DNA from: Acidobacteriota bacterium
Lineage (GTDB): Bacteria > Actinomycetota > AC-67
Reading direction: 5' to 3'
NCBI GenBank assembly: GCA_016208485.1
Contig: JACQXY010000052.1
Location: forward strand, 13,601-77,600
Length of the DNA stretch: 64,000 nt
Shown one piece after another: positions 13,293 to 17,970 of this stretch (positions are counted from its first letter, which is position 1; the number at the start of each line of letters is the position of its first letter). A program made the translations under genes and the position numbers. Below the pieces are notes generated by a model that made no database searches, was not told the origin of the DNA, and saw only the letters and a program-made list of their open reading frames with translations.

Positions 13293-15086
13293 TCACAGGT
13301 ACTGCCCGGTCGCGACCGTCTCGATCGCCCGCGGGGAGCCCTTCGTTCCCTCCGACAGAAGCGTGCGGACGTAGACGATCCGCTCGCCCTTCTTGCCGGA
13401 GATCCTGGCCCAGTCGTCGGGGTTGGTCGTGTTCGGGAGGTCCTCGTTCTCCTTGAACTCGCTCCGGATGGCGTCGAGCAGATCCTGCCCGCGAATGCCG
13501 CGTTCACCGGTCGCGAGAAGCCGCTTGATCGCCTCCTTCTTCGCCCGAGCGACGACGTTCTCGACCATCGCGCCGGAGTTGAAGTCCTTGAAGTACAGGA
13601 TCTCCTTGTCCCCGTTGGCGTAGGTGACCTCCAGGAAGCGATTCTCGTCGGACTCGGCGTACATCCGCTCGCAGGTGACCGCGATCATCGCCTCGACGGC
13701 CTTCTCAGCGCTCCCGTGCTTCCGGATCTCATCCTCGTGGAGCGGGAGGTCGGGCGTCAGGTAGATCCGGAAGACCTCGCGCGCCGCCTCGCGGTCGGGG
13801 CGCTCGATCTTGATCTTCACGTCCAGGCGCCCGGGGCGCAGGATCGCCGGGTCGATCATGTCCTCGCGGTTCGATGCCCCGATCACGATCACGTTGGTCA
13901 GGGTCTCGACGCCGTCGATCTCCGACAGGAGCTGCGGGACCACGGTGTTCTCCACGTCGGAGGAGATCCCCGACCCGCGCGTGCGAAAGATCGAGTCCAT
14001 CTCGTCGAAGAACACGATGACCGGGAACCCCTCCTCGCTCTTCTCCTTCGCGCGCTGGAAGATGAGCCGGATCTGGCGCTCGGTCTCCCCGACGTACTTG
14101 TTCAGCAGCTCGGGACCCTTGATGTTCAGGAAGTAGCTCTTCGCGTTCGGACCTTCGCCCTGCTCCCCCACCTGCCGGGCGAGCGAGTTCGCGACCGCCT
14201 TGGCGATGAGCGTCTTGCCGCACCCGGGTGGCCCGTACAACAGCACGCCCTTCGGCGCCTTCAGCTTGTGCTCGGCGAAAAGGTCGGCGTGCAGGAAGGG
14301 CAGCTCGACGGCGTCCCGGATCGCCTCGATCTGGCCGCGGAGCCCCCCGATGTCCCGGTAGGTGATGTCCGGGACCTCCTCCAGGATCAGCTCCTCGACC
14401 TCGGGCTTCGGCAGCCGCTCGAAGGCGTAGCCGGACCGGCCGTCAATCATCAGGCTGTCGCCGGACCGGAGGCGCTGGCCCCGCAAGGGCTCGGCCAGGT
14501 AGACCACACGCTCCTCGTCGGCGTGCCCGACGACGATCGCGCGCTCGGAGTCGATGATCTCTTTCAGGGTGACGACCTCGCCCTGGGCCTCGAACGCGCG
14601 CATGGCGATCACGTTCATCGCCTCGTTGAGCATGACCTCCTGCCCCTTGACCATGCCCTTGGGGTCCACGTCGGGGTGGACGGCCACCCGGAGCTTGCGG
14701 CCCCCGGTGACGATGTCCACCGTCCCGTCCTCGTTCGTCGACATGTAGACGCCGAACGCGGATGGCGGCGCGGTCAGCTTCTCGACCTCTTCCTTGAGGG
14801 CGAGGATCTGCTCTCGCGCTTCCTTCAGCGTCGAGGCGAGACGCTCGTTCTGGCCGAGCACGTGCGAGAGGCGCGCTCGCGCCTCCGCGAGCTTGTCCTC
14901 GAGGACCCTGCCCTGCCGACCCGGCTCGCCCACGCGACGCCGCATCAGCGCGGCCTCCTCCTCGAGAAACGCCACCTGGCTCCGAAGCTCGGCGATCTCC
15001 TTCTCGTGGTCGCCACCGCGCGGCTCTCGCTCAGACCCACGCACCGGCACACCTCCTTGCGACGCTCCAGCTCGCGACGCTCCCAT
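13293..15086 (-). CDS. arc: Proteasome-associated AAA ATPase ARC/Mpa
   Basis: 597 aa with an N-terminal coiled coil, Walker A (GPPGCGKT), and a C-terminus of ...ETVATGQYL, the GQYL proteasome-docking motif. It lies immediately upstream of dop. Confidence 0.97.
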
Positions 15087-15270: not shown

Positions 15271-16050
15271 TCAAACCCCGAGGAACCGCGCTGTGGTGAT
15301 GAACCCCGTGTGGGCGACCATCCGGTGATCGGGGCGCACGCTCTGGCCCTCGACGTGCCACGGCCGGACGAGTCCCTCGATCGTCGCGATCTCGGTGAAG
15401 CCGGCCCCGCGCAGCTCCTCCACGGCCTGGTGGACCTGCAGAACGGTGGGGACGTACGAGCAGAAGATGGCACCCGGCCGGAGCACCTCTCGCGCGACCG
15501 GGATGACCGTCCACGGCTCGGGCAGGTCGAGCACGATCCGGTCCACGTCGCGCTCGGGCACTCCGGCGGTGAGGTCCCCCAGCCGAAGCTCAAGCGAAGG
15601 CGGGATCTTCCCCAGGAACGCTTCCACGTTCGCGCGAGCGCGAGCGTGGAAGTCCTCCCGGATCTCGTAGGAGATTAAGCGCCCGCGCTCCCCGACCATC
15701 CGGGAGAGCGCGAGCGTGAGAGCCCCCGAGCCCGTGCCGGCCTCGAGCACCGTCTGGCCGGGACCGATGTCGGCGAGCACCAGGATCAGCCCGATGTCCT
15801 TCGGGTAGATGACCTGGGCGCCGCGCGGCATCTTCAGCACGAACTCGGCGAGCGACGGGCGGAACACGATCAGCGGTACGCCCGACGTGGAGTAGACCCG
15901 GACCCCTTCGTGGAACCCGATGATCGCGTCGTGGGCGACCGCGCCGTGATGGGTGTGGAACTCGCCCCCCGGCCGCAACGTGACGAGGTAACGCCGCCCC
16001 TTGCGGTCGATCAGGAGCGCGCGCTCCCCCGACTCGAGCGGGGCGCTCAC
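15271..16050 (-). CDS. trmI: tRNA (adenine58-N1)-methyltransferase TrmI
   Basis: ERALLIDRKGRRYLVTLRPGGEFHTHHGAVAHDAIIG...PRGAQVIYPKDIGLILVLADIGPGQTVLEAGTGSGALTLAL parallels Mtb Rv2118c. The GTG start (16048-16050) follows GGAGG and overlaps the upstream stop as GTGA. Confidence 0.93.
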   Translation of the reverse strand: MSAPLESGERALLIDRKGRRYLVTLRPGGEFHTHHGAVAHDAIIGFHEGVRVYSTSGVPLIVFRPSLAEFVLKMPRGAQVIYPKDIGLILVLADIGPGQTVLEAGTGSGALTLALSRMVGERGRLISYEIREDFHARARANVEAFLGKIPPSLELRLGDLTAGVPERDVDRIVLDLPEPWTVIPVAREVLRPGAIFCSYVPTVLQVHQAVEELRGAGFTEIATIEGLVRPWHVEGQSVRPDHRMVAHTGFITTARFLGV

Positions 16051-17189
16051 GACGCCTCCGTCCGCCGCCCGCGGCGCTCCGCCGCGCGGGTCAGGCGGCA
16101 GTACGCGCACGCGGCAGGCCCGCCGCACTCCCTCGCCCCGGGGGTCGGCATCCCGCAGACCGAGCAGTCGGCAAGGGCGCCGCCGCGCTCCTCCACGAAG
16201 CTCGAGGCCGCCCGGTCGAGGAAGCCGAGCACGAACTGCTGCCTGGTTCCCGGCGAGTGGCGCTCGAGGGATGCAATCGCCTCCTTGTAGCGGAGCTGGG
16301 TGTTCCCGGTGACGAGAGGGCACTCCTCGACCACGTACTCGATCCCGTTCAGAAACGAGTAGGCGGCCGACTCCCGCTCCGCGACCCGGTACAGCGGCTT
16401 CACCTTTCGCGCGAGGCGCGGGTGAGTGGACGGCAGGGCCGGACGCTGCCGGGCCAGGAACTCGGTGGACCAGTGCAGCACGTTGCCGAGCAGGGTCGCC
16501 GCCTCATCGTCGAGATTGTGCCCGGTGGCGACGACGTCGAATCCGCCCTCGACCGCCGCCGCGTTGATCAGGTAGCGCTTCGCCAGACCACAAACGCTGC
16601 AGGGAACCCGCCGGCTCTGTCGCGCGACCCCCTCGATCGTGAAACCGTCGTCTGCCGCTAGGTCCCGGGTCAGGAGATCGGCTCCCCGCGCCGCCGCGAA
16701 CCGCTCGCAGGCCGCCAGCGAGTCCCGCGCGTAGCCCTCCTCGGTCCCGAGGACCAGGTGGAATCCTGTCGTGGCGTATCCGAGGTCGAGCAGGATGTCC
16801 CACAGCGCGAGCGAGTCCTTCCCCCCCGACACCGCGACGAGGACCCGGTCGGCGCGCATGAGCATCTCGTGGTCCTCGATCGCCCGGACGACCTTGTTCT
16901 TCACGTAGCCGAGGAAGCAGCCCGAGCAGAACGCCGCGTTCGCGCTCGGCACGTCCATGACGGCCTTGGCGCGGCACCGCTTGCACTTGGTGAGCGCGCC
17001 GCCCGAGACGACCGGCCGCAGCTCGATCTCATCCTCCGGGGTGAGATCCTCCTCGCGCGCGAGCAGATCGCCGCCGCGAATGACCAGGACCGAATCGGGG
17101 TTGATCCCAAGCCGCCCGAGCAGGTCCCGGACCCGTCTCGGCCCGTCAACCTCCACGACCCGCGTCGGGTTCCGGAGCGTCACCTTCAT
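16047..17189 (-). CDS. Fusion protein: N-terminal ThiS/MoaD-like beta-grasp domain ending in GG, plus a TtuA/Ncs6-like PP-loop tRNA 2-thiolation ATPase
   Basis: Residues 1-64, MKVTLRNPTRVVEVDGPRRVRDLLGRLGINPDSVLVIRGGDLLAREEDLTPEDEIELRPVVSGG, follow a ThiS pattern. Next come CKRC...CSGC zinc-finger motifs, the PP-loop VAVSGGKDS, CSVCGLAKRY, ATGHNLDDEA and C-terminal CSVC...CAYC, as in TtuA. The start is the ATG at 17187-17189. Confidence 0.85.
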   Translation of the reverse strand: MKVTLRNPTRVVEVDGPRRVRDLLGRLGINPDSVLVIRGGDLLAREEDLTPEDEIELRPVVSGGALTKCKRCRAKAVMDVPSANAAFCSGCFLGYVKNKVVRAIEDHEMLMRADRVLVAVSGGKDSLALWDILLDLGYATTGFHLVLGTEEGYARDSLAACERFAAARGADLLTRDLAADDGFTIEGVARQSRRVPCSVCGLAKRYLINAAAVEGGFDVVATGHNLDDEAATLLGNVLHWSTEFLARQRPALPSTHPRLARKVKPLYRVAERESAAYSFLNGIEYVVEECPLVTGNTQLRYKEAIASLERHSPGTRQQFVLGFLDRAASSFVEERGGALADCSVCGMPTPGARECGGPAACAYCRLTRAAERRGRRTEAS

Positions 17190-17970
17190 GGGACGCCACG
17201 ATAGCCCCCCGCGCGCGCCTCGCGCGAGGGCCGGGATCCGGTGCGTCCCCGCCCTCCGCGCGCGCCGCGCTCCCGTTCGCCCCATAGAGGAACCACCCGA
17301 GCAGCGCCCACCAGAACGCCGGGAGCGCCTCGTCGCCCCCGCTCACCACCACCAGCGCGGCGCCCGCGCCGACCAGCCCGAACGCGACTGCCTTGCCGCC
17401 GGCCGCCGCCAGGCGGGTCGCCCGCGCGCGGTCGCGGGTGCGCGCCCACAGCGCGCTCCGGAGGATCCTGCCCCCGTCGAGCGGGAACCCGGGGACCAAG
17501 TTGAAGACCGCGAGCGCGAGGTTCACCAGACCGAGGAAGGCGAGCGCCTCGGCAACCCCCGGCGATCCCACGGCGCGCGAGATCCCCACGAGCGCTCCGG
17601 CGATCAGCAGGCTCGAGAGGGGGCCGGCCACGGCGATCCGGTACTCCGCGGCCGGCCGCGGTGCCTCACCCCCGATCGCGGCGACGCCGCCGAACACGAA
17701 CAGCGTGATGCGTTTCGCCTCGAGGCGGTGCGCGCGTGCGACGACGGCGTGGGACATCTCGTGGGCGAGCACGCTTGCCGCGAACGCGAGCGGGAAAAGG
17801 GCCGCAACCGCCCAGCGCGCGGCCGCGCCCGACGCAAGACCGGGAGCGAGCTCTCGGTGGGCGAGGAACGCGACCAGCGCGAAGCTCGCGAGCCAGCTCG
17901 GGTGCACGACGATCTCGACCCCGAGCACCCGCAGGAGCGCCCGGGGGGCCGTCCGCGACCGCCGCGACAT
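17146..17970 (-). CDS. Site-2-protease-family (M50) membrane metalloprotease
   Basis: It carries HEMSH (in LAHEMSHAVVA) and NLVPGFPLDGG in a polytopic membrane protein. Its 3-prime end overlaps the next gene by 44 nt. Confidence 0.85.
   Translation of the reverse strand: MSRRSRTAPRALLRVLGVEIVVHPSWLASFALVAFLAHRELAPGLASGAAARWAVAALFPLAFAASVLAHEMSHAVVARAHRLEAKRITLFVFGGVAAIGGEAPRPAAEYRIAVAGPLSSLLIAGALVGISRAVGSPGVAEALAFLGLVNLALAVFNLVPGFPLDGGRILRSALWARTRDRARATRLAAAGGKAVAFGLVGAGAALVVVSGGDEALPAFWWALLGWFLYGANGSAARAEGGDAPDPGPRARRARGAIVASHEGDAPEPDAGRGG

Follow-up and report, generated by a model that had tools for sequence, protein, structure and literature searches.

A predicted TtuB-type sulfur carrier fused in frame to a TtuA-type tRNA 2-thiolase and coupled to trmI: a candidate precursor protein

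The stretch of DNA analysed here (64,000 nucleotides; "the window") raises the question of how a ubiquitin-fold sulfur carrier could serve a tRNA thiolase when its Gly-Gly lies inside the same polypeptide as the enzyme. The gene concerned, ttuBA (17189..16047, on the minus strand, as are all window features located below), is a single open frame from ATG 17189 to TGA 16049-16047 that encodes 380 amino acids. Its first 64 residues (16998..17189), assigned by PDB phmmer, a family profile and Pfam, make up a putative TtuB/ThiS-like ubiquitin-fold sulfur-carrier domain with the C-terminal motif RPVVSGG; read off the sequence, the codons of Gly63-Gly64 at the domain junction (16998..17003) are followed, without stop or frame change, by a four-residue linker, ALTK (16986..16997), and then by C69, the first zinc-finger cysteine. 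The predicted TtuA-type tRNA 2-thiolase core (16047..16985 including the stop codon; PDB phmmer and NCBIfam) contains the PP-loop SGGKDS (residues 121-126; read off the sequence at 16829-16812), four CxxC pairs split over two zinc fingers (C69, C72, C88 and C91; C342, C345, C361 and C364), the Fe-S cysteines C197/C200/C290 and Lys204. Because 316 further residues follow Gly64, a free carrier end requires cleavage. Production of free TtuB by internal restart or frameshift was rejected, as the window sequence offers no ATG, GTG or TTG in frame at the linker, and neither shifted frame meets a stop nearby.

The carrier domain was identified by several searches. Residues 2-64 match TtuB (5ztb_E, chain 11-74 of 74; PDB phmmer, E 6.2e-9) in an alignment that runs to the last residue of the chain, its last glycine, and a family profile built from the window's domain and 21 free homologues matches TtuB (5gha_E, E 1.3e-20), SAMP2 (5lda_B, 1.6e-13) and 1rws_A (2.4e-13); sequence homology to the solved structures of TtuB, SAMP2, 1rws and 1ryj is strong. 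Pfam ThiS matches residues 10-64 just under its cut-off (E 2.2e-4; 22.1 bits against 22.5), and the ThiS part scores 25 bits, above the cut-off, in a six-frame search. As judged from its sequence, the N-terminal region is a TtuB-type carrier with a Gly-Gly end, as the initial annotation had proposed. The domain is 67-72% identical to those of its own clade, versus 62-66% for the TtuA core; being no less conserved than the enzyme, the carrier gives no sign of relaxation. A separate ttuB is absent from the six-frame search of the genome, which returned only three ThiS-family matches: thiS, ttuBA and a CysO-like gene whose product ends GG-AG.

Fused and separate forms of the pair are both widespread. 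On a TtuA tree of 89 rows, the fused form occurs in at least three actinobacterial groups, and fused and separate states are intermixed, with six changes, at least two of them forced by well-supported branches; in other phyla, ttuB and ttuA are separate but adjacent. Of the separate ttuB genes that adjoin ttuA, 63 were compared: GG is the terminus in 15, a tail of 1-22 residues follows it in 47, and one gene is broken. We propose that the fusion arises by the joining of two overlapping genes, a step easy to make and easy to undo, and that it is tolerated because in this family most TtuB proteins have residues beyond Gly-Gly that need removal in any case. Gly63-Gly64 is conserved without exception across the 25 aligned fused proteins, and RPVxSGG is kept in all fused forms. 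Linkers of 115 fused homologues span 3-24 residues, with modes of 6 and 11, and only five have four residues or fewer. In the literature searched, which was that outside subscription journals, no paper describes a TtuB-TtuA fusion; one may exist elsewhere.

We favour, with a rough probability of 0.55, the reading that the ttuBA product is a TtuB-TtuA precursor that is cut after Gly-Gly, like MoaX, and then charged by the single E1-rhodanese protein of the genome. An endopeptidase (in relatives, most likely of the Mec+/JAMM type) would cut after Gly64; the freed TtuB would be adenylated and thiocarboxylated by the only E1, the ThiF-rhodanese protein; and TtuA, with TtuB-COSH and ATP, would 2-thiolate U54 in the T-loop of tRNAs on which TrmI, from the same mRNA, would already have methylated A58. 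PMC7912444 names m1A58 among the determinants of U54 thiolation. The predicted product is s2U54, which is likelier than the m5s2U54 named by the initial annotation because a search of the 94.9%-complete genome for the U54 methylases TrmFO and TrmA revealed no gene of either type.

Precedents for such a precursor exist in another pathway. In MoaX of Mycobacterium tuberculosis and DR2607 of Deinococcus radiodurans, as in ttuBA, a ubiquitin-fold carrier is N-terminal and fused via Gly-Gly to the enzyme that it serves, and activity of these MoaD-MoaE fusions is reported to need cleavage after Gly-Gly (PMC4326299, PMC8832034). Cleavage of MoaX between Gly82 and Ser83 is described as required, by a protease given as unidentified (PMC4326299), and a Deinococcus JAMM enzyme is described as cleaving the MoaD-MoaE fusion, just as PfJAMM1 cuts SAMP2 regardless of what follows it (PMC8832034). 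For Thermus, PMC3980101 describes a JAMM mutant with aberrant TtuB conjugates and thiouridine down by about 50%. By analogy with MoaX and the Deinococcus fusion, a need for release after Gly-Gly may reasonably be inferred here, as the initial annotation had argued. The parallel has limits: the pathway of MoaX and DR2607 is that of molybdopterin rather than tRNA, their cleavage has been shown and that of ttuBA is predicted, and the Deinococcus protease is a JAMM enzyme, of a kind not found in this assembly.

The E1 expected for the precursor reading is present as the genome's single ThiF-family gene (C1:34448-35155), which encodes a protein of 400 amino acids with ThiF and Rhodanese domains. 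The protease is harder to account for. The earlier statement that no JAMM protease is visible holds for the window and also for the whole assembly, in which a JAB profile has no match, Prok-JAB has only a 21-bit match in a gene read as RadC-like, and four JAMM proteins of relatives find nothing better than E 0.24 by tblastn; nor was any C39 or C48 peptidase found in the assembly. The statement does not extend to the relatives, as a JAMM gene is found in 11 of 11 that carry the fusion. When 50 of the 80 related loci are counted by ttuB type, JAMM is present in 12 of 13 genomes with a fused ttuB, 17 of 21 with a tailed one and 14 of 16 with an exact GG end; frequencies so similar indicate that the distribution of JAMM does not follow whether trimming is needed. 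In the synteny around JAMM genes, only the carrier of a mec-cysO-cysM-type block in one relative (G001) has a counterpart in this genome (G000), the rest reflecting either a loss or an assembly gap. At 94.9% completeness, one locus such as that for a JAMM enzyme may be merely unassembled.

The strongest competitor, which we regard as possible although doubtful, is that the polypeptide is never cut, that TtuA draws sulfur from sulfide or persulfide at its Fe-S cluster, and that the TtuB domain is a structural, docking or regulatory module. The missing JAMM, C39 and C48 peptidases favour it, as does the linker, which at four residues is among the shortest of the 115 and leaves little room for a protease; so do the report that Thermus TtuA takes sulfide in vitro without TtuB (PMC11323500) and the groundwater habitat, which may be sulfidic. 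The same peptidase result, the short linker, the sulfide use and the failure of JAMM presence to track trimming are counted against the precursor. Counted for the precursor are the invariant Gly-Gly and RPVxSGG, the unrelaxed carrier, the lack of a separate ttuB, the presence of an E1 and the JAMM genes of fused relatives. An uncut protein is hard to reconcile with a carrier domain that keeps its whole motif in every fused form and evolves no faster than the enzyme, with retention of the E1-rhodanese enzyme, and with JAMM in all 11 fused relatives, given that a single locus may be absent from this assembly.

Less probable still, in our estimation, is a broader proposition: that carriers of the TtuB family are generally synthesised as pro-proteins whose Gly-Gly is followed by a tail or an enzyme, and that in this organism Gly-Gly is exposed by a new kind of protease or uncut TtuB-TtuA acts in cis without a free carboxylate. 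In the pairs CysO-Mec+, HcyS-HcyD and QbsE-QbsD, residues after the carrier's Gly-Gly are trimmed by JAMM enzymes; there, as in ttuBA, the reactive terminus is blocked and has to be uncovered, the difference being that the "tail" of ttuBA is an entire 316-residue enzyme. Eukaryotic ubiquitin precursors are linear fusions to ribosomal proteins, freed by cleavage after Gly-Gly; ubiquitin is a protein modifier, and role, fusion partners and proteases all differ from those considered here. TtuB is among the few bacterial proteins that act both as sulfur carrier and as ubiquitin-like modifier. If TtuB-TtuA is a natural and widespread polyprotein, tRNA thiolation would gain a maturation step, and residues beyond Gly-Gly in most TtuB genes of many phyla would likewise imply one; such maturation resembles ubiquitin-precursor processing and could gate the thiolation pathway. 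This genome, with a linker of the shortest class and no recognisable JAMM, is a useful test case.

The residues after the carrier are predicted to be a TtuA-type PP-loop thiolase and not TilS, TtcA or NcsA. Residues 69-376 match Thermus TtuA (5gha_A/5b4e_A, chain 3-301) at full length (PDB phmmer, E 1.4e-80; 274 bits, against 95 for the U34 thiolase 6scy and 34 for TilS), and among NCBIfam models TtuA NF049949 scores 240 bits, NcsA 106, TtcA 71 and TilS 36. Pfam places TtuA_LIM_N at residues 68-93 (E 9.3e-9) and ATP_bind_3 at 116-288. C197/C200/C290 align to C130/C133/C222 of 5gha_A, and the corresponding three cysteines of the Pyrococcus enzyme (Cys128/131/220) are described as having a [4Fe-4S]-cluster role (PMC3980101); SGGKDS, both zinc fingers, the Fe-S cysteines and Lys204 do not vary among the 25 aligned fused proteins. 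Thiolation of U34 (NcsA/Ncs6-like) or C32 (TtcA-like) instead of U54 is very unlikely. It could be argued from the NF049949 score, which lies below the 450-bit equivalog cut-off of a model that takes its name from the Pyrococcus type (the ttuBA product being nearer to the Thermus enzyme); from the occurrence within the family of enzymes for three positions; and from the missing U54 methylase gene. The much higher full-length score of Thermus TtuA, the low scores of the NcsA and TtcA models and the linkage of trmI, another T-loop enzyme, in 56 of 80 loci all speak for U54, and Sulfolobus is reported to have s2U54 lacking m5U (PMC7912444).

Both proteins have clear counterparts in the TtuA/TtuB/TtuC system of Thermus thermophilus (5gha, 5ztb, 5b4e), and the enzyme shares with Thermus TtuA, as described in PMC3980101, the PP-loop, both zinc fingers, the three Fe-S cysteines and a lysine just after the third CxxC; a single E1 common to several carriers is likewise described for Thermus (PMC3980101). 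Unlike the Thermus proteins, carrier and enzyme are here one polypeptide with an internal Gly-Gly, the E1 has its own rhodanese domain, no U54 methylase gene was found, ttuBA is coupled to trmI, and the organism comes from groundwater and not from a hot habitat.

The trmI gene (15271..16050), which encodes a tRNA m1A58 methyltransferase of 259 amino acids (Pfam GCD14, E 5.6e-30; TrmI-like_N, E 1.2e-18), is translationally coupled to ttuBA: its GTG start (16050-16048) and the TGA stop of ttuBA (16049-16047) share the sequence GTGA (16047..16050), an overlap already noticed by the initial annotation and confirmed by reading the sequence. Of 80 related loci, 56 have trmI immediately downstream of ttuA, all 13 fused loci among them, and in 21 of the 56 the projected ttuA/trmI overlap is 4 nt. 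Other neighbours mattered less than had been suggested. An M50-family metalloprotease gene (17146..17970; Pfam Peptidase_M50, E 1.9e-22) does overlap the start of ttuBA by 44 nt, and M50 was rejected as a partner of the fusion as it is upstream-adjacent in only 3 of 80 loci (L017, L034 and L076). Downstream of trmI, the window does contain the Pup-system genes previously noted, namely arc/mpa, encoding a proteasomal AAA ATPase (13293..15086; Pfam AAA, Prot_ATP_ID_OB_N and Prot_ATP_ID_OB_C), a Dop/PafA-family gene and two proteasome subunits; a functional link between TtuB and pupylation is not supported, because ttuBA comes to lie beside arc-dop-pup-prcBA through a trmI-arc gene order that is conserved (an arc homologue after trmI in 35 of 80 loci, dop in 23 of 80). 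When all ORFs of the 80 loci were clustered and representatives searched with Pfam, the neighbours included an HtrA-like trypsin-PDZ protein, an S13 carboxypeptidase, a Lon substrate-binding-domain protein, a CvpA-trypsin protein, arc, dop and a proteasome subunit, with no JAMM among them; none of the conserved neighbours looks fusion-specific.

A possible thermophilic lifestyle, also put forward in the initial annotation, receives little encouragement from the distribution of the locus: the window's DNA is present in groundwater metagenome runs, with no RNA run among those listed, and the MAGs in which homologues occur derive from soils and groundwater and belong to many phyla. Soil and groundwater bacteria that are not thermophiles commonly carry the TtuA/TtuB/TrmI T-loop module, which calls into question its textbook role in heat adaptation.

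That TtuB and TtuA are one polypeptide, and the fusion genuine, is confirmed. Logan contigs of runs X1 (16000-17143) and X2 (16730-17266) cover the junction without a single difference or gap; as both runs come from one study and X1 is possibly the sample from which the window derives, they are not fully independent. An assembly or sequencing error masking a stop codon or frameshift after Gly-Gly, conceivable because a one-base indel can fuse the two genes of the common pair with a 4-nt overlap and because one related locus (L050) has an apparent ttuBA-trmI read-through resembling such an error, is negligibly probable given the identical contigs of two samples, the SGG motif followed by a linker in 115 of the 120 closest proteins in the database, which stem from numerous separate assemblies (the remaining five lack the upstream part), and the window's own clade of nine rows, all fused, at 96% branch support. 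Genomes of 11 relatives each give a single unbroken match over both domains with no stops, and Atlas clusters of 114, 57 and 65 members contain ThiS, TtuA_LIM_N and ATP_bind_3.

The minus-strand ttuBA gene (ATG at 17189 to TGA at 16049-16047) is an open reading frame of 380 codons in which a TtuB-type carrier domain (residues 1-64, ending RPVVSGG, with Gly-Gly codons at 17003-16998) is followed, after a four-residue linker read from the sequence as ALTK, by a complete TtuA-type tRNA thiolase: a first zinc finger (C69, C72, C88, C91), the PP-loop SGGKDS (residues 121-126), three cysteines (C197, C200, C290) aligned with C130, C133 and C222 of the Thermus chain, and a second zinc finger (C342, C345, C361, C364). 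The start at 17189 was chosen over an upstream ATG at 17285 because the N-terminus MKVxLRNP is common to all aligned homologues. A plain sequence search of the PDB with the protein matches residues 69-376 to residues 3-301 of Thermus thermophilus TtuA (5gha_A, 5b4e_A; E 1.4e-80), with lesser matches to Pyrococcus TtuA (5mko_A; E 2e-64) and a U34 thiolase (6scy; E 5e-26). NCBIfam likewise ranks TtuA (240 bits, below the 450-bit equivalog cut-off of the model) above NcsA (106 bits) and TtcA (71 bits), in line with the TtuA-like assignment of the initial annotation; TilS (E 2e-7; 36 bits) is ruled out. For residues 1-64 the same search finds Thermus TtuB (5ztb_E; E 6.2e-9), in an alignment that reaches the final residue of that chain, and a profile of the domain with 21 free-standing homologues finds TtuB (E 1.3e-20), then SAMP2, 1rws and 1ryj. 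The Pfam ThiS model scores 22.1 bits on the protein, marginal against its cut-off of 22.5, and 25 bits, above cut-off, in a six-frame search of the genome. Homology points to a beta-grasp fold for this domain, and the fusion has the parts, and would have the chemistry, of the Thermus TtuA/TtuB system. Contigs of two sequencing runs from one study, one of which may be the source sample of the assembly, span the junction without any difference, indicating that the proposed fusion is not the product of a missed stop or frameshift after Gly-Gly. It is a real, conserved variant of a known system, with a predicted maturation.

Downstream on the same strand, trmI (259 aa) starts at a GTG within the GTGA that holds the ttuBA stop, which supports the proposed coupling of the two genes. 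In a survey of at least 80 loci, one genome per species, 56 of the 80 loci listed, all 13 fused ones among them, have trmI downstream of ttuA in the same orientation, with a projected 4-nt overlap in 21 of the 56. This linkage fits the dependence of U54 thiolation on m1A58 described in PMC7912444. Beyond trmI lie arc, a gene of the Dop/PafA family and two genes for proteasome subunits. The noted position of a second ubiquitin-like moiety beside the Pup system holds, but it implies no tie between the two: arc follows in 35 and dop in 23 of the 80 loci listed, so the location reflects a conserved trmI-arc gene order. Similarly, the 44-nt overlap of an M50-family gene with the 5' end of ttuBA is confirmed (its last 14 codons share 17146-17189 with the first ttuBA codons, in another frame), but an M50 gene is next upstream in just 3 of the 80 loci listed.

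The fusion is not confined to this organism. Among the best 120 matches from a collection of 5.8 billion proteins (53-66% identity), 115 carry xSGG, separated from the first zinc finger by 3-24 linker residues (most often 6 or 11), and the other five lack the upstream part; the first residue past Gly-Gly is A in 90 of the 115, S in 11, Q in 9, G in 4 and D in 1. ATP_bind_3, TtuA_LIM_N and ThiS also occur together in three Atlas clusters (114, 57 and 65 members), mostly of Actinomycetota. A TtuA match is present in 26 of 60 relatives' genomes, or 27 of 61 with the window's own (counts that take in the unpublished G021 and G037), and one uninterrupted match covers both domains in 11 of the 26, eight in the window's family and three across two other families; ttuA is present at all in 10 of the family's 20 genomes. 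In one relative of the family (G002), ttuA occurs twice (contigs C150 and C58), as a copy joined to ttuB (query 2-366) and as an unfused copy (query 66-366). Comparative literature lists MoaD-MoaE and ThiS-ThiG fusions, whose architecture parallels this one, and ThiS genes adjoining PP-loop ATPases (PMC1779556, PMC2948915); no TtuB-TtuA fusion was found in the parts of the literature searched. Particular to the window are its groundwater origin, the very short linker and an assembly in which no Gly-Gly protease can be recognised.

The 80 loci listed comprise 13 in-frame fusions, all in Actinomycetota (Nitriliruptoria included), 63 with a separate ttuB immediately upstream of ttuA (in Acidimicrobiia, Rokubacteria/Methylomirabilota, Nitrospirota, Chloroflexota, Bacillota, Acidobacteriota, Dormibacterota and Binatia), and four others: L023, whose carrier ends VSGG with a stop codon right after, L076, at which no carrier was found, and two at contig edges. 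Fifteen of the 63 separate genes finish exactly at Gly-Gly, and 47 continue for 1-22 residues, frequently as a two-residue tail that results where the gene overlaps the start of ttuA by 4 nt. Tails of 12-22 residues (L028, L052, L054, L017, L029) are intermediate between these common tails and full fusions. In a quick-search tree of 89 TtuA cores (two rows dropped), the window falls inside a clade of nine rows, all fused (96% support), eight rows of Nitriliruptoria make up another group of fusions alone, and a well-supported third clade of 15 mixes seven fused with eight separate; the fused/separate label requires six changes, at least two of them forced by well-supported branches. Together with the classes of locus, this indicates that the fusion is a recurrent, reversible merger of two overlapping genes, arising in a family in which the carrier would mostly have to be trimmed in any case. 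The last of the 63 separate genes is a broken ttuB in an Acidimicrobiia MAG (L081, 6001-6180, plus strand), whose frame is lost before Gly-Gly, by frameshift or assembly error. The single TtuB-TtuA-TrmI frame at L050 (5899-8220, plus strand), in which out-of-frame-looking sequence replaces the second TtuA zinc finger, is most likely due to an indel error in assembly rather than a true triple fusion.

We consider the fusion to be a precursor cut after Gly-Gly, with a probability of roughly 55%. A thiocarboxylate requires a free carboxylate; no fused form departs from Gly-Gly; within its clade the window's protein is 67-72% identical over the carrier domain and 62-66% over the TtuA core, so that the carrier is conserved no less than the enzyme; an E1 is retained in the genome; and tails past Gly-Gly are the rule in the TtuB family. 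There are also direct precedents: MoaX needs an unidentified protease to cut it between Gly82 and Ser83 before it is active (PMC4326299), a Deinococcus JAMM protease cleaves a MoaD-MoaE fusion, and PfJAMM1 cuts after SAMP2 regardless of what comes next (PMC8832034). The main rival, an uncut enzyme supplied with sulfur by sulfide, is less probable; in its favour are the four-residue linker, the use of sulfide by TtuA in vitro (PMC11323500) and the lack of a JAMM gene in the assembly. The last point, previously noted for the window, extends to the whole assembly (2.66 Mb, 86 contigs, 94.9% complete): the JAB model has no match, the single Prok-JAB match (21 bits) is in a gene that we take from its motif to be RadC-like, tblastn with JAMM proteins of four relatives gives at best E 0.24, and neither C39 nor C48 peptidases were found. 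By comparison, 17 of the family's 20 genomes and all 11 fused relatives have a strong Prok-JAB match, full-length in the 17; the other three family genomes have two partial matches and one of 26 bits over part of the model. JAMM genes occur in 12 of 13 fused, 14 of 16 exact-Gly-Gly and 17 of 21 tailed cases among 50 other genomes with loci from the 80 listed, so their presence does not separate the classes. In G028 the JAMM gene adjoins E1; in G001 it lies within a JAMM-carrier-PLP enzyme block resembling mycobacterial mec-cysO-cysM, and the whole block has no counterpart in the window's genome, which could reflect gene loss or an assembly gap. The unassembled 5% may contain the JAMM locus; otherwise another protease would act or the protein would be uncut.

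The E1 that was to be looked for elsewhere in the genome is present as one ThiF-rhodanese protein (400 aa), reminiscent of Thermus, in which one E1 is shared (PMC3980101). Neither TrmFO (TIGR00137) nor a TrmA-type U5 methyltransferase (PF05958) was found in the assembly; U54 methylation is probably absent, and s2U54, reported for Sulfolobus (PMC7912444), is therefore the likely product. A ThiS-family search of the assembly finds no separate ttuB and three matches: the fusion, a thiS that adjoins thiH and ends in Gly-Gly, and a CysO/MoaD-like carrier. The last, which would also need trimming in a genome with no JAMM found, lies outside the window on contig C14 (about 1489-1770 of locus L001, plus strand), ends AVAGG-AG, two residues past Gly-Gly, and directly follows a ThrC-like PLP enzyme with an N-terminal zinc ribbon.
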